Shown here in pieces: positions 312-12,217 of a stretch of 64,000 nt of DNA. A model generated the notes under the pieces. It made no database searches, was not told the origin of the DNA, and was given only the letters and a program-made list of their open reading frames with translations. This DNA comes from Naegleria gruberi. Lineage: Eukaryota. The DNA is taken from NCBI GenBank assembly GCA_000004985.1, contig GG738925.1, one strand, 5' to 3'. Position 1 is the first letter of the stretch. The number at the start of each line of letters is the position of its first letter. The position numbers and the translations under genes were made by a program.

Positions 312-1589
312 TTACAAGTGTAAATCTGGGTTTTTGCTTAAGAAACTGTGATAGGTATTCTTCATCAGTGATGCAATAGTGACTGGTCCTACGCCTCCAG
401 GAACTGAATATGAAATATATCAACAAATGCGTAAATAAAACTTACCTGGTGTAGCAGCACTTGCTCTCTTTTTGAGATTATCATCAAAGAGAACATCACC
501 TACCAATCTGAATCCTCGTTCTTGTGTCTTGTCTTCAACTGGTGTCAATCCTACATCAATTACAATAGCTCCCTTTTTGATCCATTCAGGTTTAATGATT
601 TCAGCACATCCACAACATACTACCAGAATGTCAGCCTTGGAAATCTTTTCTGGAATGTTTTGTGATTTGATGTGAAGCAGCTGTACAGAGGTCTGAAGTT
701 GATTCAATAGTACCAAAGCTGTTGGAATACCAACAATATTCGAAGCTCCAACAACCACAGAATCTAACCCTTCCAAATTCATGTTCAATTTTTGGGCAGT
801 TCTTCTAATCATTTCCATTATTCCAAGTGGTGTGCAAGGAACAAAATTGATACCATCAACTAATTTTCTTCCCTTCATTGAAATTAATCCAAAACTAAAT
901 TGTGTCAAACCATCTACATCTTTAGCTGGAGAAATACTTTCCAAAATCTTTTCCTCATTCAAATGTGATGGAAGTGGTAATTGCACAAGTATTCCGTGCA
1001 CTCTATCATCAGCATTGTACTGTTGAATAGTTTTAATCACATCCTCATCAGTAACTGATTGATCATCTTCAAAATGTGTTTTAAAACTTTCAATTCCCAG
1101 CTCGGCACACGCTTCCTGCTTTCTCTGTACATAGGTCAATGAATCCTTTCTCGATCCCACCATAACCACGGCCAATCCTGGTCTTCTCACTTGTCCACCT
1201 TTTTGTTTTTCAACAATTCTTTCAATATCTCTTTTAATTTCCTCTTTAATTTCCGCAGCAATTTCCAATCCATTAATTAATACAAATTTATGAGGCTGAT
1301 TTTCTTCATCCATAACAATACTTTCCTCAAGTCCTCTCTCGCTATATCGTTGGTGACGTTCTTCGTGATGATGATTCATCAAACTGTGCGAATATTCGGC
1401 ACTCATTTTTCTTATTGTTGAGGAAATTAATTCCAAAGCCTTGCTCGAGTTGATGTAATTGATGCTATTAATATTATTATTTGATGAGGTTGTTTTGAAG
1501 GATGAGGATGACAGACCCGACATTTTCATGAAAGAAAAAGTGCGGAATAAGCTTTTTCTTTGTATTAATCTTTGCATTTTTTTTATCAT
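312..1589 (-). CDS. Bifunctional methylenetetrahydrofolate dehydrogenase/cyclohydrolase (FolD/MTHFD-like), with N-terminal presequence-like extension. Exons complement(join(312..403,446..1589)).
   Basis: Conserved FolD motifs GLAVVMVG, YVQRK, VHGILVQLPLP, KDVDG. The ORF breaks after ...AATPG at a GTAAGT donor. The 42-nt intron ends TTCAG, and the second exon restores the canonical FolD C-terminus TPVPGGVGPVTIASLMKNT and ends at TAA 312..314. The N-terminal 90 aa are R/S/F-rich (possible mitochondrial targeting). Confidence 0.85.
404..445 (-). other. intron (42 nt) of the FolD-like gene
   Basis: GTAAGT...TTCAG. Splicing restores the conserved C-terminal FolD motif in frame. Confidence 0.8.
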
Positions 1590-1855: not shown

Positions 1856-3904
1856 ATGAATGGAAATGGTCTTGGTGGCAGGGGTTTCTCTCAGAAAAAA
1901 CGAAAGTTTTTGGATCATTATTCATCAAACTTTATTAAACCGAGTAAATATTTAATTCTCTCTCAAGAAAATCTTTGCTCTGATAAACAGCAGGATGACA
2001 AAAATTCACACTTTCGAGAAACAAGAATTATTCCAGAGAGAAATAATTACAATATTCATTCCCATAGCCAAATAGTTGATGATTGTTGGCAGATTATTTT
2101 TGATTTTGTGGAAAAGATTGAAGATAGGAAGAGTATGATTCTTGTGTGTAAACATTGGGCCAACATGTTTATGCAACCATTTATTGGATATTGTTATGAG
2201 ATTTATGATGAAAATAGACATTTGAATGGATTGACAGAATATGTCGAAGAGAATGGAGAAGATGGATTTGTTTGTGAGGGAGGAATGTTTTTTACTGAAA
2301 TGGCAACTTGGAAGGAACCTCTTTGCTATGATAGTCTGGAAGAGGAGGAATACTCTGGATTTAATTGGGATAGAATTCCAGAAAATCAAGTGGAATTTGA
2401 AGGATCTTCTTATAGACAACGAATTCTTCCATTTGGGGTTCCTCTATGTAAGGAAACAATATCAGATCAATATGAATTGGTTTCTAGTGAAATTGATTCA
2501 AGTACTTATAGGAATATGGTAGAAAAATTTATGGGAATTCCAAAATCTGAACAGGGAGCATTATCTCTAAAACCTTTCGAATTGTACGAACAAATTGAAC
2601 ATGAAAAACAAATGGTTTACTCATACATTCATGAAATTCAAAAATCCCTAGATTTTGATGCTGGCAATGCAATTTATGCAGAAGGTAAGGTGATGTATAA
2701 TGATGATGATTTTTATGATTCTTCACAGAATGATCCAGAGTTTATATTTTACGCACTTCGATCTGGAATTCAAAGATTGGCCAGAAAAGCAGGTGTCAAA
2801 TACTTTGAACCTGCTGTGATTGAGGATTATCTTTATGAATTGAAGAGGGTAATTCATTTGGTGCTTGAGAATGCATACGAGAGAAAGTTTTCAAGAAAGA
2901 CTGCGAATTTGGTATTTGAGGAGTCATCTGAACAATATGAACAGTGTTATATCGATCCATGTGATGCCTATCTGCCAACATGTGATGACAATCTTGATAC
3001 AGATCTAAAATTGGATCATACGGAAATATTGGAATCATTTGAGAGAATTACTGGAATGAAAATGTTTTATCAACCAATCAAAGATCCTTATAACTTGAAC
3101 GATACAGATCTCAAGCAATACTTTGCATTAGAGAATGGTACTGAAACAGTTTCTGAATTGCAACCAAAAGAAGAGTTTAAATTTAAAGAGCCAACCATTT
3201 TCAGCAATGAATCTATCCCCGATATTCTGAATGAATCTCAAATAGATGAAGATCTCACTTCAGAGGAGAGTGAAGATGATTCAACTTTACAAACAATTGC
3301 AAATGACAACTTTATAGATGACAGCGAACTATACCATGTCGATTTGGATAATTTAGGAGATTCCCTTCAAGATCAATTACTGAAAGTGTCAATTCGTGTC
3401 CATGAAGAAGTCTACGGAAAGGAAAGAGCTCACAAAGAAAAGCTCTATCTCAAAAATTGGTACGGCTGTAGTGAATTGTTTTACGAGAATTGTTCCAAGG
3501 AATTGGATAATCCACCTTCCATGCAATTCACCCCAATTGAAGAAGATGCAATTTCTGAATCAAATGAAGATGGTATTGATGAAGAGGAAGAGGAAGAGAA
3601 ACGAACACGAGGAATACAAACTAAATTTTCTTCATTGGATTTTGAAGAGGAATCTGAAGTTTCTATTGATGGAGAGTTTGATGTTAAAGAACAAGATACT
3701 ATTGAAAGAGTTAATGAGGAAGATTTGGAATATTTTGGCTATGCTCTCTATGAAGATGATTTCGATGAATTTCCAATATTCAGTGACCAAGATGATTCAG
3801 AAGAAACTTTGGAACAGTCCTCTGAGGAGGAATCTCTTCGATATCATTTAAGAAGAATGCTAAGGGAACAATCTTATGAATGCATTGTTAATTATAACCA
3901 ATGA
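1856..3904 (+). CDS. F-box domain protein with long acidic C-terminal region
   Basis: 682-aa ORF with an A-rich ATG context. F-box-like segment IVDDCWQIIFDFVEKIEDRKSMILVCKHWANMF. D/E-rich C-terminus. Antisense ORFs inside it are short and low-complexity. Confidence 0.6.
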   Translation: MNGNGLGGRGFSQKKRKFLDHYSSNFIKPSKYLILSQENLCSDKQQDDKNSHFRETRIIPERNNYNIHSHSQIVDDCWQIIFDFVEKIEDRKSMILVCKHWANMFMQPFIGYCYEIYDENRHLNGLTEYVEENGEDGFVCEGGMFFTEMATWKEPLCYDSLEEEEYSGFNWDRIPENQVEFEGSSYRQRILPFGVPLCKETISDQYELVSSEIDSSTYRNMVEKFMGIPKSEQGALSLKPFELYEQIEHEKQMVYSYIHEIQKSLDFDAGNAIYAEGKVMYNDDDFYDSSQNDPEFIFYALRSGIQRLARKAGVKYFEPAVIEDYLYELKRVIHLVLENAYERKFSRKTANLVFEESSEQYEQCYIDPCDAYLPTCDDNLDTDLKLDHTEILESFERITGMKMFYQPIKDPYNLNDTDLKQYFALENGTETVSELQPKEEFKFKEPTIFSNESIPDILNESQIDEDLTSEESEDDSTLQTIANDNFIDDSELYHVDLDNLGDSLQDQLLKVSIRVHEEVYGKERAHKEKLYLKNWYGCSELFYENCSKELDNPPSMQFTPIEEDAISESNEDGIDEEEEEEKRTRGIQTKFSSLDFEEESEVSIDGEFDVKEQDTIERVNEEDLEYFGYALYEDDFDEFPIFSDQDDSEETLEQSSEEESLRYHLRRMLREQSYECIVNYNQ

Positions 3905-4089
3905 TTCCGTTTCAGATCTGAAATTTGATTAATCTCCATATTTAAAACTGGAGCACAAATTTAGCAACTTTTTAGCTCCAAACCAATAAATCACTTCTCA
4001 CAACACTTTACAAGTGCACTCTGGAATACAACACTGTTCACTAACACCATTCATCAGGTTCATCAACAAAAAAAAACAAGGCTAAAACA

Positions 4090-5508
4090 ATGACCCTTAC
4101 TACCACTTCATGTCTCTACATTGATTCCGAAGGGAATTGGGTAGATAATAATCATCCAAAGAGAACAGCTCCCAAGGTTGGAGATTACATCACTCACAGA
4201 GTTAGACTTTCGTTTTTCGATCTCTGCTTGTACTATGCAAATATTGTTGATTATTTGCGAATTGTGATGGTTGTGGTGGCATTGATAGCACTCATTGTGA
4301 ATGATGAGATGAATTTGGGATGTAATTGGTCTTCGATTAGTATTTCTGTTTTGGTATTTGGAAGTGTTTTATTGGATTGGGTGGATGGTCCATTGGCAAG
4401 AAATTTTGGTCAATCTTCAGTGATGGGATGTGGATGGGATTGGTTGGCTGATATTCTTACTCAATTGTGTTTGGCTATTTGGTGTATGTCATTAAGTAGT
4501 GATTACAAGATTTTCAAGTTGTTTACCGTCTTATTGACAGCTGTTGAGATTAGTACAGGAATTTTCGATTTTGCTGTGAGTGCACAAGGAGTTTATCCAT
4601 CAATGCACAATACTGAGAACCTACCTTGGTATGCTATTGTTGAGCATTGGCTTACTCCTAATCATAGCTATAACAATTTGGGAATTATTTGTTGGTTGGT
4701 GAATACCTTGTATCCAATTACTGTATTTTTGCAACTTCCTTCCATTGTTTCTAATTCCCTAATTCCTTTTGCAATTCTCTATGCTTGGCATGAATGTACA
4801 CAATGTGTTTTTATTGTGGTTAATTGGAAGGAAACTGCAGTAACACTTCATCAAGAAGGAATCGAACATGTTAGAAAGTGTAATGATACTGAAATTGAAA
4901 TGCTGAAAACAGCTCACGAAGCAACCCTTAATACTCCAGTGGAACTTGATGACGAAGCTACAAAAATTAATGAAATCACATGGGTGAACTTGTACAATAA
5001 TGGGAAAATTTCACCAGTATTCGAAAATCATCCACTGCAAAAGGAATTCCACGATTGGGTTAAGAGTTTGGTTAAATCAAATTGGTTAGACGAACAGGAT
5101 CGTATTATTCTCTCATATGGCTTCATCACTGCACCAAAGAATGGAAATGTCACTCAAGATTGGCACTTTGATTATGGTGAAAATGTCAGCAATTTATTCA
5201 TTCCTCTCTGTGATGTGACAGAAAAGAATGGAACTCAATTTATTCGTGGACCTCTCAGACAAGATATGCCACCAGGTGAATATTTCCCTAGACCATTTGA
5301 AATTATGACTGAAGAAAAGTCAGAATGTCTACAAGTTTGTCAAGTGGTTTGTAAGGCATTTAATTTATTGAAATTGCACCCAGGTGTATGCCATAGAGGA
5401 ATAGCTAATGGCGAAAATTATGACCGAGTAATGTTCTTCTTGAGCACTAATCCAACTCCTTTAGATATTGGAGAAGAAGGATATTTGAATAAGGCAACCT
5501 ATGATTAA
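4090..5508 (+). CDS. CDP-alcohol phosphatidyltransferase (membrane domain) fused to a C-terminal PhyH-like (phytanoyl-CoA dioxygenase family) 2OG-Fe(II) oxygenase-like domain
   Basis: Exact PROSITE-type motif DGPLARNFGQSSVMGCGWDWLAD (DG-x2-AR-x8-G-x3-D-x3-D) followed by several hydrophobic helices. The C-terminal roughly 230 aa carry WHFDYGEN (HxD) and LCDVTEKNGTQFIRGP, which resemble the PhyH WHQD...LDDATEENG...PGSH block, plus a later His (LHPGVCHRG). A-rich ATG context. Confidence 0.75.
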   Translation: MTLTTTSCLYIDSEGNWVDNNHPKRTAPKVGDYITHRVRLSFFDLCLYYANIVDYLRIVMVVVALIALIVNDEMNLGCNWSSISISVLVFGSVLLDWVDGPLARNFGQSSVMGCGWDWLADILTQLCLAIWCMSLSSDYKIFKLFTVLLTAVEISTGIFDFAVSAQGVYPSMHNTENLPWYAIVEHWLTPNHSYNNLGIICWLVNTLYPITVFLQLPSIVSNSLIPFAILYAWHECTQCVFIVVNWKETAVTLHQEGIEHVRKCNDTEIEMLKTAHEATLNTPVELDDEATKINEITWVNLYNNGKISPVFENHPLQKEFHDWVKSLVKSNWLDEQDRIILSYGFITAPKNGNVTQDWHFDYGENVSNLFIPLCDVTEKNGTQFIRGPLRQDMPPGEYFPRPFEIMTEEKSECLQVCQVVCKAFNLLKLHPGVCHRGIANGENYDRVMFFLSTNPTPLDIGEEGYLNKATYD

Positions 5509-5608
5509 ACCAAAATAAATATTATAATTGGAAATAACAAATGGAACGTTGCTTTTAATTAAAATTGCCAAACCCCATTTTATCAAAATTTCATGGCTCG
5601 CCACGTTA

Positions 5609-5679
5609 CCGTCTCGGGAGGAATCGAACCTCCGTCAATGGATTCAAAGTCCACTATGCTACCATTACACCACGAGACG
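5609..5679 (-). tRNA. tRNA-Gln: tRNA-Gln (anticodon UUG)
   Basis: Minus-strand sequence CGTCTCG-TG-GTGTAATGGTAGCAT-A-GTGGA-CTTTGAA-TCCAT-TGAC-GGAGG-TTCGATT-CCTCC-CGAGACG-G folds as a cloverleaf. It has a 7-bp acceptor stem, a TTCGATT T-loop and the anticodon loop CTTTGAA. It closely resembles eukaryotic tRNA-Gln(UUG). Confidence 0.85.
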
Positions 5680-6755
5680 AGCACATTCATGAAAAATGAT
5701 AAATACATAGATTAAGTATAATTAGATTTAAGGTTTTTAACTAACTATCATTAACACTAAGCAATATTACTAGCTTCTTTCCCAACACAAAATGTCAGCA
5801 AACTCGGTAGACCCCTTGGAAAAACAACACATGTAGAACAAGAACAACCCAGTAAAGAACCCAAATTAGATACAACAACAATAGACTCTTTCACGTGGGT
5901 AATGGGAAGTGATTCTTCAGAATTGTTCGATCATTTCGACGCAATAGAAAACGAGTTAATGCATTTGAACTCTTTTTCTTCTGATATTGTTGTAGTTCCC
6001 TATCAATTCTATTTCTTGGAAAGAATGTTTGATATTTCAACAATTCTACCCTAGATCAAACTCTAAATCATTTTTGGCTCTGCTTATATCTAACTTGTGG
6101 TTTCTACTGACAATATAATCAATGTTTTTCCAAAGCAAGCTCTAGTTGTATCATTTGGACTGTGTGTATTAGAAGCTTGAATTTTTTGTAACCTGTAAAT
6201 TCGAGTAATATCAACACCTCCAGTTTCTCCTGCTCCAACGTGGAATGCTCTAAATTTAATCATTCATTCCTTTTATATCAAGAATAGTAACTCTCTTCTT
6301 TTGACACCAATGGGAAAGAAGAGCCAAAATGTTGTCTAAACGAGTCTCTTTTGTCAATAGCGTTGCCTTACTCAACAAATCATAAACAATTCGGAAAATA
6401 ATAATAGTATCTAATGGAGAGATAGGTGCCCTTACATTTAGAATGATTCTTGACCTGCTTAACCCAAAAGTTGACTGTACAATTCTTAATGATTGAAATT
6501 CCTTGAGTACCCAAATCAATATTGTGGAGAGTTTAATAGATTTTATTAAGATCAGATTGATAAAATATTATGATCTTAAAGATTATCAGGAATGGTTGCA
6601 TCATTAACCTTTAGACCTAAATCAAAATTAGCAAGAAATTCATAAAAATTAACATTGTTAGCAATAATCAGATGCAAATTTTAGTTATCTTTACAAATTC
6701 CCAATACCTACTAGAATCGGTAAACCAATTTTTATAATATTTATTTTAAAAAAAA

Positions 6756-7049: not shown

Positions 7050-7220
7050 ATTCTCCAAAGGATGATAACCTTGTATTTAATTTAATTAGGATTTGGTATA
7101 AGAGAGACCAGACCATATTTGTAATTTGATTTGATTGGAAATCCGAAAATCTGACATATCTCTACAGAATATTTATATGGAAATATTGCAATAAACAACA
7201 CGTTGCAAATATTCTAATAT

Positions 7221-9654
7221 TTACAAGACGGAATCATTTATTAGAGATACTTTCAATGAGTCATGATGCTCAAATCTATAAATTGAACAGAATTGGTCAT
7301 CAATTTCAACAAAATTATTTTCATCCTTTTTTAGCATGATATTTCCAATCGACATTTCATCTCCAAGTTGGAGCACATTACTTTCCTCTTCTCTATTCTT
7401 TTGCAATCTTTTTTGAATGACATCTTTCAATTGATTCAATCCAATACTTTTTGGAATGGAAAGTCTAGTAGTTGGTGATTGCGTGCCAGTTGTTGTTACA
7501 AATGTCAAGAATACATTCACGGTTGGCTCTATGAATAATTCCTTCAAAATGTTTTTATCCTCTTCCTTAACTTGTTCAAATGTAGCAACAAGCGCTGTAT
7601 TATTCTCGTAATCTGATTTTTCCAAAGTTTCTGTTTCCATTTTAACTTCAAATTTTGGAATAATTTCATTTTCCTCTTTTTTCACAATAGGAGGTGGAAC
7701 ATTCATGTTAGGAAGAGACGTTTTTGCATCCTCTCTACTAGTACTGGTTACCATTGGTGGTGAATATGCTTGAGGAATACCAGATGCTACATGTACATTT
7801 CCAGGCAATGCTGGACCTGTTGCCACAATGGATGCCACACGAATTGGGGAAGGATTTGGAGAGTTTTGCAAATGTTCTTGAGTGTAAATCCTAGGTGAAT
7901 GTATCACATCTTCTCTGCCTGATGAACTAGTTCTATGTACATTACTACCATTACTGCTGTTGCTGTATGGATGATATCTGTGTGAAGAAAGTGGAGGTGC
8001 ACCATTTTCAACTCTTGCTGCGTTTTCATGCTTATTTTGACCATTGTTGAATGCATGCAATGGACTATTAGAATAATTTCTATTAACATTATTTGAAGTA
8101 TTATTTACAGTCTGCATTGCATTATTGGAAGGATTTGATCCAATCGCATAGGATGGAGGTGCAGTTCCCATCATTTCCATAATGGATGGAACAGATGTAT
8201 TAGTACCAGTGCCATTTCTAGGAGATTTTGGAGAAGTGGTTGCATGGGGATGTTGCATTGGTGAAGATCTCACAAATGGGTCATGCAAAGATGGTTGCAC
8301 CATACCTCCCCTGCTAGCAGCTCCTACATTATTACTCCCTCCACTACTTGTACTATTCGGTCCATTTAAATATTGAGAATTTTCATTGGATGCATATGGA
8401 TGGTAGTGATGAGATTTTCTATATGAAGATGATGAAGAATTTACATGTGTTGGTGATACAGGAGGTGAACGAGAATGACTTTGATAATGAGGAGGTGGTG
8501 GAGGTGCATTATGATGTGGAGAATAAGATGATGAATAATGTGCATGCATTGATGATCCATCATGTACAACATATGTATAATGTGGTGATGGTGGAGGAGG
8601 AGGTTGACTTTGCATGTCGTTATGATAGTACTTTACTCTGCCACTACTACCATTACTGTATTCTGCTTCATACTGTTTAGCATGATGCATGTCGACATGA
8701 TGATGATGTGAATGAACATGCATTCTAGATCCATCATGGTGATGGATGTTTCCTGCAGATGATGAAGGATAACCATGATGATGAGATGCATATTGTGCAT
8801 GATGCATGGTGCTGATAGTATTAGTATTACTAGTAGGATTAGTATTGAGTGATGGCAACACCCGAGATGCATGCGACACATGTGTATCACCAACACTACC
8901 TAGATGTCCATGAGGTGAAGGTGGAAGAGGTTGAGAAAGTGGACTATTCTCTTGTGTTGTTGTTGTTGCTCCCTTAGTTGTTGTTACATTATTCTTCCTT
9001 TTAACCTTGTTGATAGATAAACCAGTGACCTGAACATGTTCACATGTAATGAAAATGAAAATAATGAGAGATAGCAAGTTGACATGCAATTAATTTGATG
9101 TGCATTGTTGGAATACTTTTTTAGCAATTAAAACTTACATATTTGTATTTCTATTTAAAATCATGATTAGTTTTTGATATTAAAATTAAAAACTTACCTT
9201 TGCATAACAATTCTTACAAACACCATCTCCAATTCTAATTTCTGGTACATGTCTAAAGCATCCCTTATACTGTTCAATATTTGATTCGTTGATTGTATAG
9301 CTGATGTACTTATTTCCTGTTCACAATGTTCATTAGATCAGTGACACATGTCAAAGTATTAAAAGAGGTGATCCTGTCAGAAAATTAAGCGCTGTAAAAA
9401 CTTACCCGTGTCAGCTTTACCACAAATGATGCATGACTTGTGTTCTACCTGCTTGGCTTGAGTTTTTGCCATATGGTTCTTCATGGGATTTCTTTCTTGT
9501 GGTGTTGAATAAATATTCTGTTCCATAGTATTTTGTTGTGTTTCCATTGTGGGCCTTGAGATGGTATCAACCTCATTCAAATGTCTATGATACGAAGGAA
9601 CTGGACGAGTGGAGTTGGACAAAGTATTAGGATAGGAAGCAACACTGAATGATG
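7221..9654 (-). CDS. Multi-exon gene: Cys-rich zinc-finger-like N-terminal exons, a long His/Pro/Ser/Asn-rich low-complexity region and a C-terminal PB1/ubiquitin-like-looking domain. Exons complement(join(7221..9029,9198..9316,9406..>9654)); the 5' end runs into the assembly gap.
   Basis: Exon ending ...HKSCIICGKADTG|GTAAGT (donor at 9405). An 89-nt intron leads to a 119-nt exon encoding NKYISYTINESNIEQYKGCFRHVPEIRIGDGVCKNCYAK|GTAAGT. A 168-nt intron ending CATGTTCAG then joins in frame to VTGLSINKVKRK... (the body of ORF 7221..9089, whose annotated N-terminus is intronic). Motif C-x2-C-x24-C-x2-H-x10-C-x2-C. Confidence 0.55.
9030..9197 (-). other. intron (168 nt; may contain a micro-exon)
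   Basis: GTAAGT donor after ...CYAK. Acceptor CATGTTCAG|GTCACTGG. Phase 0 on both sides. A second GTAAGT at about 9131..9136 sits inside the interval. Confidence 0.45.
9317..9405 (-). other. intron (89 nt)
   Basis: GTAAGT donor after ACG G. Acceptor ...GTGAACAG. Frame preserved (G|GA = Gly). Confidence 0.55.
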
Positions 9655-9900
9655 NNNNNNNNNNNNNNNNNNNNNNNNNNNNNNNNNNNNNNNNNNNNNN
9701 NNNNNNNNNNNNNNNNNNNNNNNNNNNNNNNNNNNNNNNNNNNNNNNNNNNNNNNNNNNNNNNNNNNNNNNNNNNNNNNNNNNNNNNNNNNNNNNNNNNN
9801 NNNNNNNNNNNNNNNNNNNNNNNNNNNNNNNNNNNNNNNNNNNNNNNNNNNNNNNNNNNNNNNNNNNNNNNNNNNNNNNNNNNNNNNNNNNNNNNNNNNN
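9655..9900. other. assembly gap (246 N)
   Basis: Run of N characters. It interrupts the 5' part of the minus-strand zinc-finger gene and the body of a plus-strand gene. Confidence 0.99.
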
Positions 9901-10023
9901 AAATATGGAATTAATTCTGTAACTTTGACAGCTGTTGGAACAGCTGCATTAATTTATGAAAAGAAATTTGGTTTTGTTGAATGTGGAAGAGTAGTTTATA
10001 TCAATAGACATGAGCAGTTATAA
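9901..10023 (+). CDS. 3' terminal fragment of an unidentified gene downstream of the gap
   Basis: Open frame KYGINSVTLTAVGTAALIYEKKFGFVECGRVVYINRHEQL ending at TAA 10021..10023. It overlaps the last 23 nt of the convergent kinase gene. The X-run in the track ORF is an artifact of translating N. Confidence 0.3.
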   Translation, partial: KYGINSVTLTAVGTAALIYEKKFGFVECGRVVYINRHEQL

Positions 10024-12217
10024 TTTCCAAAGCTTCCTTTGAGGATACTCTCTCTTCTGGGAGAAATTTGAGTGTTCCCTTCAAGAGAGTTTCCAGTTTT
10101 GCCATGGATGGCTTTCCAACTTTATCTGAATATATTCTCTCAATTTCACACTGAATGCATGCAAGTGTTTTTTCCTCTCCTTTTTGTATCATTTCCAAGA
10201 AGATATTCTTCCTCTCATTTCTTGTTAATAATTGATAGAGAACAATACCAGCGGACCATACATCGGCTTTTAGTCCATATCCTTGATTGAGTTGAAGCTC
10301 TGGGCTTTGGAATCCCATTGTTCCACTCACACTAAAAGCTCTACTTTCAACAATATGCTTGGAGAGACCAAAATCACCAACAAGAACATGCACTTTGGAG
10401 ATTTGATTTCTTTCATTCTTTTCAATGGAACCAATGAGAATATTTTGTGGTTTGATATCACGATGAATAACTTTTTTGGAGTGGAGCTCAACTAGAGCTG
10501 AGAATATTTGTTGCATGATTGAAATTATTGTTTTGAGTGGTAATATTGCAGCATCGGAAGTTCTAATGAGAGAGGACAAATCACCATATGGATAGTAGTG
10601 CATGACAATACACAGTACTGCACAGTCACTATTCGTATCGCTCTCCAAAGAAATTGGGTTGTAGTAATGTTGAAAGACATCTAAAACTTTAACAATATTT
10701 GGGTGATTGAACATAAGCATTTGGAGTGCCTCCTTCATAGCATCATTGAATGATTGATTAGAATTACTATGATCCATATCAACTGGGAGTAATTTGAGAG
10801 CTACTTGCTTTGTCTGTGAGGAAGATCCAAAATGATCTTCACACAAATAGACTGAGGAAAATCCACCACTTTGAATTTTTCTAAGAGGCAAGTATCTTTC
10901 ATTCCATAGTTGACTCTTTGGTTCTTGTGGAGAGGGAATAGATAAAGAAGATGCTGTATATGAAATATTGAAGGAGCTAAAACTCAATTTGGTGGAAGGA
11001 TTGGAAATTGGAGTAACTGGAGGAGAGTTGGTGGAAATTCTAATTTGATTAACATGTGGAGATTCCACAAGAAGGTCCAAATCATCCAACTCTATATAGT
11101 CATCACACTCTCTATCAAGGATTTCAATAAAGGAAATTCTTTGATTGCCCCTCAATATGGTTTCACACTTGTCCTTGATGAACTCTTCCACTGAATGAAT
11201 TGAAGGGAAAGGACTCTTTTGAGTGAGTTTCTTCTTTCTTGAACCGTGTTGAATCATCATGATATACCTGGGTTTATCATTCTTTTGAGAATTGTTTACA
11301 GTTGTTGTGGTCAAGTTTGGATTCACAGTATTTTCAACATGTTTCATTATCCAAGGATGATGAGTGAGATTCTTAATCAAAGATCGGGTGTAGGAATGAT
11401 TCTTGAAACACAGATTGAGGAAATCAATTACTGACTCTGAACATGACTCAGATTTAGGATAGTACTTTCTAATCATTTCTTCCATATTCTTTCCACTCGA
11501 TAACAGCTCAAATAAGGAATTCCAATCATAATCATAGAAGGGTCTTCTCTCAGTCATGAGCTCAATAACCAAACATCCAACACTCCAAATATCTGCCAAT
11601 GCTTGTTTTGTCCACTCACAACTCTTATTACATTTGAACAATGAAGGTGAGCTATAATTGATACATGGTTGATATTTAATATACTCATCTCTGGATAACA
11701 CAAATCCAATATCACACAATTTGATTTGTCCATTCCTGGATAACATGGTATTATTGGGAGTCAAATTCAGGTGTGCCATTTTGAGTTTCTGATGCATGAA
11801 CATAATACCCTGCAATACCTGATCAATATACTTGGCAATTACCTTCTCACTTGGTTTATATCCTTTCTGGGAGAGCATGGATAAGGAACCATTTTCTAGG
11901 AATTCCTCAACAACCACATAGAATTCCTCACCCTCCAAAATATTACCACTATCATTCATGATTGGAAGGGTGACACTGGCAAAGGTATGAGCCAGATATG
12001 GACTATATTCATTACTCAATTGTTTTGCTTTGAGGGTTTCAATTCGTTCTCTCAATTTTGGAACTACATCTTGATTGTAAACATGCTTGATTACTACAAA
12101 GTTTCCAGTTTGGATGTGATAGCCTTTGTAGATTTTATAGTACCAATTCTTTCCTAAACAATCAGATTCTCTATTTACTTGCTGTTCCTTCTTTGAGTAT
12201 TTTGAACTTTCTAACAA
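10001..12217 (-). CDS. Tandem protein kinase: N-terminal degenerate (pseudo)kinase domain plus C-terminal active Ser/Thr kinase domain. N-terminal extent unresolved (possibly continues to 12486).
   Basis: Domain 1 has VVIK and MAHLNLTPNNTML/CDIGF in place of HRD/DFG. Domain 2 has VALK, HRDIKPQNIL, DFGLSK and a SPE motif. The ORF has no ATG near its 5' end; its annotated M is a TTG. Confidence 0.8.
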   Translation of the reverse strand: MLESSKYSKKEQQVNRESDCLGKNWYYKIYKGYHIQTGNFVVIKHVYNQDVVPKLRERIETLKAKQLSNEYSPYLAHTFASVTLPIMNDSGNILEGEEFYVVVEEFLENGSLSMLSQKGYKPSEKVIAKYIDQVLQGIMFMHQKLKMAHLNLTPNNTMLSRNGQIKLCDIGFVLSRDEYIKYQPCINYSSPSLFKCNKSCEWTKQALADIWSVGCLVIELMTERRPFYDYDWNSLFELLSSGKNMEEMIRKYYPKSESCSESVIDFLNLCFKNHSYTRSLIKNLTHHPWIMKHVENTVNPNLTTTTVNNSQKNDKPRYIMMIQHGSRKKKLTQKSPFPSIHSVEEFIKDKCETILRGNQRISFIEILDRECDDYIELDDLDLLVESPHVNQIRISTNSPPVTPISNPSTKLSFSSFNISYTASSLSIPSPQEPKSQLWNERYLPLRKIQSGGFSSVYLCEDHFGSSSQTKQVALKLLPVDMDHSNSNQSFNDAMKEALQMLMFNHPNIVKVLDVFQHYYNPISLESDTNSDCAVLCIVMHYYPYGDLSSLIRTSDAAILPLKTIISIMQQIFSALVELHSKKVIHRDIKPQNILIGSIEKNERNQISKVHVLVGDFGLSKHIVESRAFSVSGTMGFQSPELQLNQGYGLKADVWSAGIVLYQLLTRNERKNIFLEMIQKGEEKTLACIQCEIERIYSDKVGKPSMAKLETLLKGTLKFLPEERVSSKEALEIITAHVY

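Follow-up and report, generated by a model that had tools for sequence, protein, structure and literature searches.

The closest described relatives of the system reported here lie in several separate pathways. In IPCT-DIPPS, the bifunctional inositol-1-phosphate cytidylyltransferase/CDP-inositol transferase of hyperthermophiles, a soluble cytosolic domain and a six-helix cytidine diphosphate (CDP)-alcohol phosphotransferase carry out two head-group steps in one polypeptide. The routes to phospholipid head groups are held to be largely mapped, and we know of none with an oxygenase built into the head-group transferase. Here we describe such a protein, encoded by NAEGRDRAFT_59916 in a 64,000-nucleotide (nt) stretch of the Naegleria gruberi genome (contig GG738925.1, assembly GCA_000004985.1; the whole stretch is called the window below), in which a CDP-alcohol phosphotransferase domain is followed by an oxygenase domain of the iron(II)/2-oxoglutarate (Fe/2OG) type. 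IPCT-DIPPS is the closest architectural precedent, but its extra domain is an N-terminal nucleotidyltransferase, which produces the CDP-alcohol; the present protein instead has an Fe/2OG oxygenase attached at its C-terminus, and the cytidylyltransferase has a gene of its own. The architecture is a previously unrecorded one assembled from two familiar kinds of enzyme, and the proteins that share it form a small family, conserved but uncharacterised, in protists and bacteria. No paper pairing the two domain names or citing the gene was found, nor any description of the fusion or of its operon; literature coverage was incomplete, so this is absence of evidence. Within the sources searched, and with no such pairing in Pfam annotation, the novelty proposed by the initial annotation holds.

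Results

One reading frame with two conserved domains

The product of the open reading frame (ORF; Table 1) is the same as XP_002669531.1 (NAEGRDRAFT_59916, UniProt D2W2A0; 100% identity and coverage), an N. gruberi "predicted protein" whose gene lies on a 182.6-kb scaffold. The initial annotation had described an uninterrupted 472-aa ORF that was no merge of two genes. Both points were confirmed: there is no interrupting stop between 4090 and 5508 on the + strand, none at the domain boundary, and both domains are present in all relatives that align over their full length. The GC content around the gene (0.36) equals that of the rest of the window, and the flanking genes are ordinary eukaryotic genes of unrelated function; the fusion gene is therefore not a contaminant.

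Three alignments were used below: A1 (28 fused homologues), A2 (C-terminal domains alone), and A3 (stand-alone relatives of the oxygenase). The AlphaFold2 model built from the 28-sequence alignment (mean predicted local distance difference test score 87.2, predicted template modelling score 0.70) has six long helices (residues 49-244) followed by a beta-rich domain (258-465), so that the polytopic membrane domain expected in the N-terminal half is borne out.

The transferase domain

The CDP-alcohol signature reported earlier is exact. DGPLARNFGQSSVMGCGWDWLAD is present and, with DWV before it, gives a regular-expression match to D-x2-D-G-x2-A-R-x8-G-x3-D-x3-D at residues 96-121, on helices 2-3 of the six-transmembrane-helix fold in the model. 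The same exact signature occurs in 40 of 45 family members, and D96, A103, G113, and D121 are invariant in A1. The profile search of this half gave Pfam CDP-OH_P_transf (PF01066) well above its gathering cut-off (46.3 bits against 22, E = 7e-12, residues 49-172), and PF01066 matches 27 of the 28 family members at E <= 0.1. The segment ahead of the domain forms a conserved short beta-hairpin (LYxxxxGKW) and a lead-in to the first transmembrane helix (YYANxIDYxR), with Y49, N51, and R57 invariant in A1. The NCBIfam models for pgsA, ClsA, pssA, and PIP synthase match the domain weakly, all far under their cut-offs; the domain is therefore a member of the CDP-alcohol phosphotransferase superfamily that fits no named subfamily.

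The region of the transferase signature (residues 94-131) has an unusual number of invariant Trp, Gln, and Phe residues in A1 (LLDW..., GCGWDW..., Q125, and W131), and FDFA follows at 159-162. Together these residues might form a cation-binding aromatic pocket for a quaternary amine. A divergent relative, P0006 (483 aa, from a 3.5-kb ENA metagenome contig), falls in the Naegleria branch of the tree at 46% identity; its transferase signature is degenerate (LLDWIACNVASYFGE...) and its HxD...H...R residues are intact, so P0006 may be a pseudo-transferase that has kept its oxygenase.

The oxygenase domain

The C-terminal half had been assigned to a PhyH-like oxygenase from WHFD, a PhyH-like block, and a later His. 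All three are in place: WHFD (residues 358-361) contains the sole HxD of the whole protein, LCDVTEKNGTQFIRGP is found at residues 373-388, and the later His is H435, followed by R446. Alongside H359, D361, H435, and R446, residues N380 and Q383 are invariant in the 28 aligned homologues, and the further invariant, pocket-like positions comprise W358, Y362, N380, Q383, Q418, N440, and F449. All but one of 45 members (44) show the pattern HxD...H-x10-R, and R446 follows the distal His at what is presumably the distance of the 2OG-binding Arg in human PhyH (H264 and R275). The Asp of the HxD motif points to an enzyme of the hydroxylase type, not of the halogenase type.

Pfam PhyH (PF05721) scored 19.4 bits on the whole protein and 21.9 bits on the C-terminal half (E = 2.4e-4) against a gathering cut-off of 22, and reached E <= 0.1 in just two of the 28 homologues. 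A family profile searched against PDB sequences returned EasH alone (E = 0.29), aligned on the QxWHxD block. The profile check of residues 240-472 was thus borderline by sequence, and we let the fold evidence override it. Foldseek searches of the PDB returned the PhyH-type Fe/2OG oxygenases GriE, MysH, FtmOx1, PHYHD1, KanJ, and EasH (E = 9e-8 to 2e-6, probability 1.0), with prolyl hydroxylases among the weaker matches. The model accordingly has a double-stranded beta-helix fold closest to PhyH-family structures, and the residues of the His-Asp-His triad are conserved in sequence; together, the fold matches and the invariant HxD...H and Arg bear out the assignment. The domain is best described as a new clade inside the PhyH-type superfamily, and both catalytic domains are apparently competent.

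In the CDP-alcohol transferases of known structure, helices 2-3, which bear the di-metal signature, face the cytoplasm, and the active site is open on that side. Because the six helices bring the chain back to that side of the membrane, the oxygenase should lie on the cytosolic face beside the transferase site.

Distribution of the family

The initial annotation had called for a search for the same fusion in other genomes, and protists as well as bacteria of several phyla proved to have it at full length. Among 5.8 billion proteins searched there were 38 relatives (28-61% identity), most of them 440-530 aa long with 92-99% query coverage and 40-61% identity, and a scan of metagenomes added 36 more loci. 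Some relatives are MMETSP or EukProt transcriptome ORFs marked 'type:complete', which indirectly counters, for species other than Naegleria, the objection that two messenger RNAs are involved. Eukaryotic contigs carry the fusion together with Snf7, PIF1, and a nucleoside transporter (L004 and L005) or with a KDEL receptor (L016). The bacterial fusions come from a Mycobacterium metagenome-assembled genome (MAG), Terriglobia, Acidobacteriia, Verrucomicrobiota, and Turneriella.

The neighbour-joining tree has two clades. In clade I, Naegleria is joined by several groups of eukaryotes and by two small groups of bacteria; clade II holds Acidobacteria, Verrucomicrobiota, and Turneriella, together with sequences of unknown origin. 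The Mycobacterium copy (L006, 1027-2081) sits beside transposase genes of the ISL3 type where its 18.8-kb contig ends, a position that suggests mobility and is consistent with recent horizontal acquisition. The patchy spread over eukaryotes and bacteria, taken with the transposases, suggests transfer between domains of life.

A profile of the C-terminal domain searched against 1.84 billion representatives recovered only 286 proteins at E <= 1e-3, of which 68 reached E <= 1e-30. The oxygenase clade is small and sharply bounded, and consists of the fusions and of stand-alone proteins of 205-250 aa, certain of which have an N-terminal membrane anchor or presequence-like extension. Two members (P0325, 528 aa, and the similar P0332) are fused to an EamA/DMT transporter. 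Precomputed Pfam annotation places PF01066 only on the fused members, nothing on the stand-alone oxygenases, and no PhyH domain on any member found; since the oxygenase domain is not marked, the architecture is hidden from domain-based surveys.

No fused form was found in IMG/VR. One stand-alone oxygenase, P0330 (205 aa; L019, 8001-8618), lies on a 206-kb contig with dense short ORFs lacking Pfam matches and with eIF2-alpha, ankyrin, and F-box genes, a gene content that resembles that of giant viruses. A weaker relative (L020, 3008-3388) was found on a giant-virus MAG in IMG/VR.

Genes accompanying the fusion in bacteria

We took a census of neighbouring genes by tblastn over all loci, and the partner counts that follow refer to high-GC (bacterial) loci. 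A class-I S-adenosylmethionine methyltransferase is near the fusion at 24 loci, an MsbA-like ATP-binding cassette (ABC) exporter (ABC_membrane + ABC_tran) at about 20, and one to three SET-domain proteins at 14. At 11 loci there is a nucleotidyltransferase with an Aminotran_1_2 (CobD-like) enzyme, either fused in a protein of about 600 aa or split (L015). The N-terminal part of the fused partner matches the Streptococcus pneumoniae CTP:phosphocholine cytidylyltransferase LicC (1jyk; CTP, cytidine triphosphate), and the C-terminal part matches CobD threonine-phosphate decarboxylases (3fkd, 1lc5, and 6oux); we refer to this partner as CT-CobD, for cytidylyltransferase and CobD-like enzyme. Both clade-I bacterial loci with DNA and enough flanking sequence (L006 and L015) have the cytidylyltransferase and the CobD-like decarboxylase.

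The arrangement of the genes varies. At L033 and L037 they are tightly spaced and co-directional, in the order SET, CT-CobD, methyltransferase, fusion, LicD-family gene, and ABC exporter. At L034, L041, and L042, CT-CobD and the fusion point forward, and the ABC exporter and methyltransferase between them, like the SET gene beyond the fusion, point backward. At L015, in clade I, the fusion adjoins the cytidylyltransferase, the methyltransferase, the CobD-like gene, and two SET genes. LicD is limited to L033, L037, and a few fragments; it is so rare that the fusion is the sole nearby candidate consumer of a CDP-alcohol at the remaining loci with a cytidylyltransferase.

PDB matches of the SET partner include the bacterial SET-domain protein BurB (9l4t), which we take to act in small-molecule methylation. 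The class-I methyltransferase partner showed no similarity to phosphoethanolamine methyltransferases, its best match being a methyltransferase embedded in a nonribosomal peptide synthetase. At the Terriglobia locus (L008), the MsbA-like exporter (7057-9198, - strand) has a C-terminal cyclic-nucleotide-binding domain, and a GMC oxidoreductase (2906-4471, + strand), of a family that includes choline dehydrogenases, adjoins CT-CobD. The CT-CobD fusion forms a large family in bacteria in its own right, with at least 1645 hits reaching E <= 1e-20. Elsewhere (L013, L014, and two more contigs) it usually adjoins a plain CDP-alcohol transferase of 290-330 aa and a LysE-family protein; this gene set resembles a Kennedy-like pathway, as yet uncharacterised, that would start from phospho-serine or phospho-threonine and end in a phospholipid. 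A kinase and nucleotidyltransferase at L009 were considered as a LicA/LicC analogue and rejected, as the two match AmgK/MurU of cell-wall recycling and an unrelated gene separates them from the fusion.

Split form and oxygenases without a transferase

At one bacterial locus (L045) the two domains are encoded by adjacent genes, a transferase at 7908-8624 (238 aa, PF01066) and an oxygenase at 8641-9339 (232 aa); between the two coding regions are a stop codon, the ribosome-binding site AGGA, and an ATG. Because this oxygenase is 67% identical to an independent protein of the same length (P0181, 232 aa), we regard the locus as a natural split form; a split of this kind is a classic sign that two activities belong together. 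Downstream, the operon encodes an ornithine decarboxylase (ODC)-like enzyme fused to a SET domain (9819-11516), and it also encodes two further SET proteins, a class-I methyltransferase, and an ABC exporter; no cytidylyltransferase was found in it.

Similar partners accompany oxygenases that have no transferase. In the operon at L021 (671-4004), a SET gene and a decarboxylase of the ornithine/diaminopimelate/arginine (ODC-like) type precede the EamA-oxygenase fusion P0325, EamA being, as we take it, the superfamily of the choline permease LicB. At L017 and L018, a stand-alone oxygenase adjoins a 54%-identical ODC-like decarboxylase and a CobD-like remnant. The recurring module is a pyridoxal phosphate (PLP) decarboxylase, one or more SET methyltransferases, and the oxygenase. 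Since the decarboxylase and SET genes stay with the oxygenase even without the transferase, the oxygenase is tied to a methylated amine.

Other features of the Naegleria window

A glutamine tRNA gene (anticodon UUG; 5608-5680, - strand) lies on the opposite strand, 100 nt downstream of the stop codon of the fusion ORF, and is the sole tRNA gene in the window. An assembly gap (a run of N at about 9655-9900) falls within the ORF at 9649-10023, whose translation shows a stretch of X there. The neighbouring genes are included in Table 1.

Table 1. Features of NAEGRDRAFT_59916 and neighbouring genes in the window.
Feature	Position	Strand	Basis or remark
Fusion ORF NAEGRDRAFT_59916	4090..5508	+	Single exon, 472 aa + stop, complete; homologues align end to end
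N-terminal cytosolic segment (predicted), residues 1-48	4090..4233	+	Alignment A1 consensus; model strands 7-11 and 17-19
CDP-alcohol phosphotransferase domain, six helices, residues 49-244	4234..4821	+	AlphaFold2 model, Pfam
Catalytic signature D96-x2-D99-G-x2-A103-R104-x8-G113-x3-D117-x3-D121, helices 2-3	4375..4452	+	Regular expression, residues 96-121
Fe(II)/2-oxoglutarate dioxygenase domain (predicted), PhyH-type double-stranded beta-helix, residues 254-465	4849..5484	+	Model, Foldseek
H359-x-D361, first two predicted iron ligands of the facial triad	5164..5172	+	Invariant in A1, A2, and A3
H435, predicted distal iron ligand	5392..5394	+	Invariant in A1, A2, and A3
R446 (His+11), expected Arg binding the 2-oxoglutarate C5-carboxylate	5425..5427	+	Invariant in A1, A2, and A3
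Methylene-tetrahydrofolate dehydrogenase/cyclohydrolase	420-1589	-	Pfam scan
Acidic F-box-like protein	1856-3904	+	Pfam scan
Low-complexity protein	7221-9089	-	Pfam scan
Protein kinase	10001-12217	-	Pfam scan

Discussion

We propose, tentatively and with confidence a little below even, that the fused enzyme makes a phospholipid carrying a choline-like head group, an N-methylated amino alcohol that its oxygenase would hydroxylate, the steps following a Kennedy-type order. The proposal draws on the bacterial operons, which appear to make, N-methylate, and activate with CTP an amine or amino alcohol; this makes the head group, and not the acyl chains, the expected target of oxidation. The Kennedy-type order is favoured because both usable clade-I bacterial loci carry the cytidylyltransferase. 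The initial annotation had suggested that the synthesis of a lipid or head group is coupled to its oxidative modification, an idea that is consistent with the bacterial operons and is not proven by them.

The steps would be as follows. In bacteria, a PLP decarboxylase, either CobD-like (of the threonine- or serine-phosphate type) or ODC-like, would supply the amine or amino-alcohol phosphate, which would then be N-methylated by SET and class-I methyltransferases and converted to a CDP-alcohol by the LicC-like cytidylyltransferase. The transferase domain would then pass the phospho-head group to a membrane lipid alcohol, most simply diacylglycerol, and the fused dioxygenase, with O2 and 2-oxoglutarate, would hydroxylate the N-methylated amine moiety either immediately ahead of this transfer or immediately after it. 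The MsbA-like ABC exporter would flip or export the lipid product. In Naegleria, where the fused enzyme alone was identified from the pathway, the precursor would be supplied either by partners whose genes lie in other parts of the genome or by the ordinary pool of the Kennedy pathway.

The chemistry limits the head group. A C-hydroxylated two-carbon head group (from ethanolamine or choline) would, we infer, be an unstable hemiacetal or hemiaminal, whichever of the two step orders discussed here applies. Because two-carbon products would be unstable, a stable product implies a head group of at least three carbons. Aminopropanol from threonine phosphate, the canonical CobD product, would fit this rule. 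Phosphatidylisopropanolamine occurs as a lipid name in the Entamoeba literature.

Several observations weigh against this proposal. Methyltransferase, exporter, SET, and CT-CobD partners were all absent from the low-GC, eukaryote-like loci in the tblastn census; no linked partner gene was found in Naegleria (tblastn over the 64-kb window and Pfam scans of the neighbours) or in the other eukaryotic contigs, and the identity of the Naegleria head group would be an extrapolation from bacterial relatives only 28-45% identical to it. A cytidylyltransferase is missing within 8-10 kb at about half of the bacterial loci that are well covered (L009, L012, L036, and L045). The CobD-like partner scores 155 bits on the NCBIfam model TIGR01140, under the cut-off of 290, and could be a transaminase instead. 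In a CT-CobD route, the oxygenase is the single gene without a necessary job. The plain transferase associated with CT-CobD was tried as the closest relative of the N-terminal domain and rejected (hhalign probability 1%). The nearest characterised relatives of that domain by both sequence and structure are PgsA, PssA, and ClsA, all users of CDP-diacylglycerol, and no similarity of the fusion to CHPT1/CEPT1 was detected in sequence or structure.

The last of these points leads to the alternative that survives best, which we consider possible and on the unlikely side: the same kind of lipid is made with another donor and in another order, the dioxygenase first producing an alcohol on a soluble N-methylated alkylamine and the transferase then condensing it with CDP-diacylglycerol, as phosphatidylcholine synthase (Pcs) does. 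Both steps have models, in that gamma-butyrobetaine hydroxylase hydroxylates a soluble N-methylated amine and phosphatidylcholine synthase condenses choline with CDP-diacylglycerol. Besides the CDP-diacylglycerol users nearest to the transferase domain, this order gives a role to every gene of the L045 operon (methyltransferase, transferase, oxygenase, SET, ODC-SET, SET, and ABC exporter), which does without a cytidylyltransferase, and L036, L012, and L009 likewise do without CT-CobD. An oxygenase found with a decarboxylase and SET proteins in the absence of a transferase, and once fused to EamA, implies a soluble substrate; when two domains are fused, the steps that they catalyse usually follow one another, and the transferase requires just such an alcohol. 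Against this order, the cytidylyltransferase is in the same operon at 11 loci, both usable clade-I loci included, usually with no other consumer of its product; an ODC-like enzyme acting on serine or threonine would yield an amino alcohol with no need of the hydroxylase; and no Pcs-specific similarity was detected.

Oxidation of the hydrophobic part of the lipid, for example hydroxylation at position 2 or 3 of an acyl or isoprenoid chain (in the manner of PhyH, LpxO, and OlsC), or production of a lipid acceptor alcohol, seems improbable to us. The domain is PhyH-like, PhyH hydroxylates a lipid acyl-CoA, and a membrane tether would set the domain beside lipid substrates. The oxygenase family, however, has decarboxylases and SET methyltransferases as its conserved partners even at loci that lack a lipid enzyme, soluble stand-alone forms of 205-250 aa exist, and the nearest structural neighbours use sugars, amino acids, and alkaloids, not acyl chains.

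We give an equally small chance to a product that is no lipid, either a soluble or exported phosphodiester comparable to the di-myo-inositol phosphate of IPCT-DIPPS or a phospho-amino-alcohol decoration on a glycan carrier, exported by the ABC transporter. The CDP-alcohol transferase family can produce soluble phosphodiesters, and the cytidylyltransferase partner scores 63 bits against the IPCT-DIPPS model; LicD, which decorates glycans with phosphocholine, is encoded at L033 and L037, and exporters of the MsbA-like type also carry non-lipids. LicD is rare among the loci, however, most characterised members of the transferase family make lipids, and the exporter is MsbA-like, with its ABC_membrane and ABC_tran domains.

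That the oxygenase domain is regulatory or non-catalytic, as a sensor of O2 or 2-oxoglutarate or as a protein hydroxylase controlling the transferase, is very improbable: PHD and FIH are 2OG oxygenases that sense oxygen, and prolyl hydroxylases are found among the weaker fold matches, but the metal and 2OG ligands and the pocket-like residues are invariant in the aligned sets, and the steady small-molecule operon context points to a metabolic enzyme. An artefact (mis-assembly, an annotation merge of two genes, or bacterial contamination), for which the split form in one bacterial lineage is the sole argument, can practically be dismissed given a domain boundary without a stop codon, the same fusion in dozens of independent assemblies and transcriptomes, and Naegleria-typical base composition and neighbours.

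A phosphonolipid or PntC-AEPT route, with a PhnY-like hydroxylase and CMP-aminoethylphosphonate (CMP, cytidine monophosphate), was also considered and rejected. No phosphoenolpyruvate mutase or phosphonopyruvate decarboxylase was found in the loci examined, the fused PLP domain is CobD-like (class I/II) and not a class-V aminoethylphosphonate transaminase, and PntC-AEPT (6pd1) matches the nucleotidyltransferase part alone. A paper on phosphonates (PMC6697681) mentions none of the operon partners.

The bolder form of our proposal would be a new phospholipid class of free-living protists and peat or soil bacteria, with a hydroxylated, N-methylated amino-alcohol head group and a synthesis that requires O2; in its strongest version, the oxygenase would create the alcohol from a methylated alkylamine and hand it directly to the transferase. 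We hold this form to be rather doubtful. If true, membrane composition would depend directly on O2 and 2-oxoglutarate, SET-domain enzymes would gain a role in methylating small-molecule or lipid amines, and the decarboxylase, SET protein, and oxygenase would constitute a reusable small-molecule module, one that also occurs in a transporter fusion and on contigs resembling giant viruses; the strongest version would add a new oxygen-dependent route to choline-type lipids. A conserved fusion with an operon of its own points to a lipid that lipidomics has missed or misassigned in Naegleria, other protists, the Acidobacteria that dominate peat, and the organism of the Mycobacterium MAG. The oxygenase clade is likewise one to which domain-based surveys are blind.

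Among known systems, PgsA and PssA (7drj and 7b1k) share about 17% identity with the transferase domain, which scores 32.5 bits on the pgsA model against a cut-off of 109; they have no oxygenase domain, and the Trp-rich signature variant LLDWVDGP...GCGWDWLAD is specific to the fusion family. With the Kennedy and lic phosphocholine pathways (LicC, LicD, LicB, CPT/EPT, and the plant and Plasmodium N-methylation of phosphoethanolamine), the operons share decarboxylation, N-methylation, CTP activation, and CDP-alcohol transfer, and some contain LicD, but the operons employ a CobD- or ODC-like decarboxylase, SET methyltransferases, and an oxygenase, all three of which are absent from those pathways. 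The small PhyH-like oxygenases (AviO1, EvdO2, EasH, MysH, GriE, PHYHD1, EctD, and human PhyH) have the same fold, the HxD...H triad, and the Arg 11 residues after the distal His, whereas the C-terminal domain of the fusion scores at or under the Pfam threshold and belongs to its own bounded clade (286 of 1.84 billion proteins). The closest analogy for the proposed reaction is with the hydroxylases of the carnitine pathway, which act on gamma-butyrobetaine and trimethyllysine: there, too, a 2OG oxygenase hydroxylates a carbon chain bearing a trimethylammonium group that derives from SET-type methylation, although those enzymes belong to the TauD/BBOX-type subfamily of 2OG oxygenases and we claim no homology with them.

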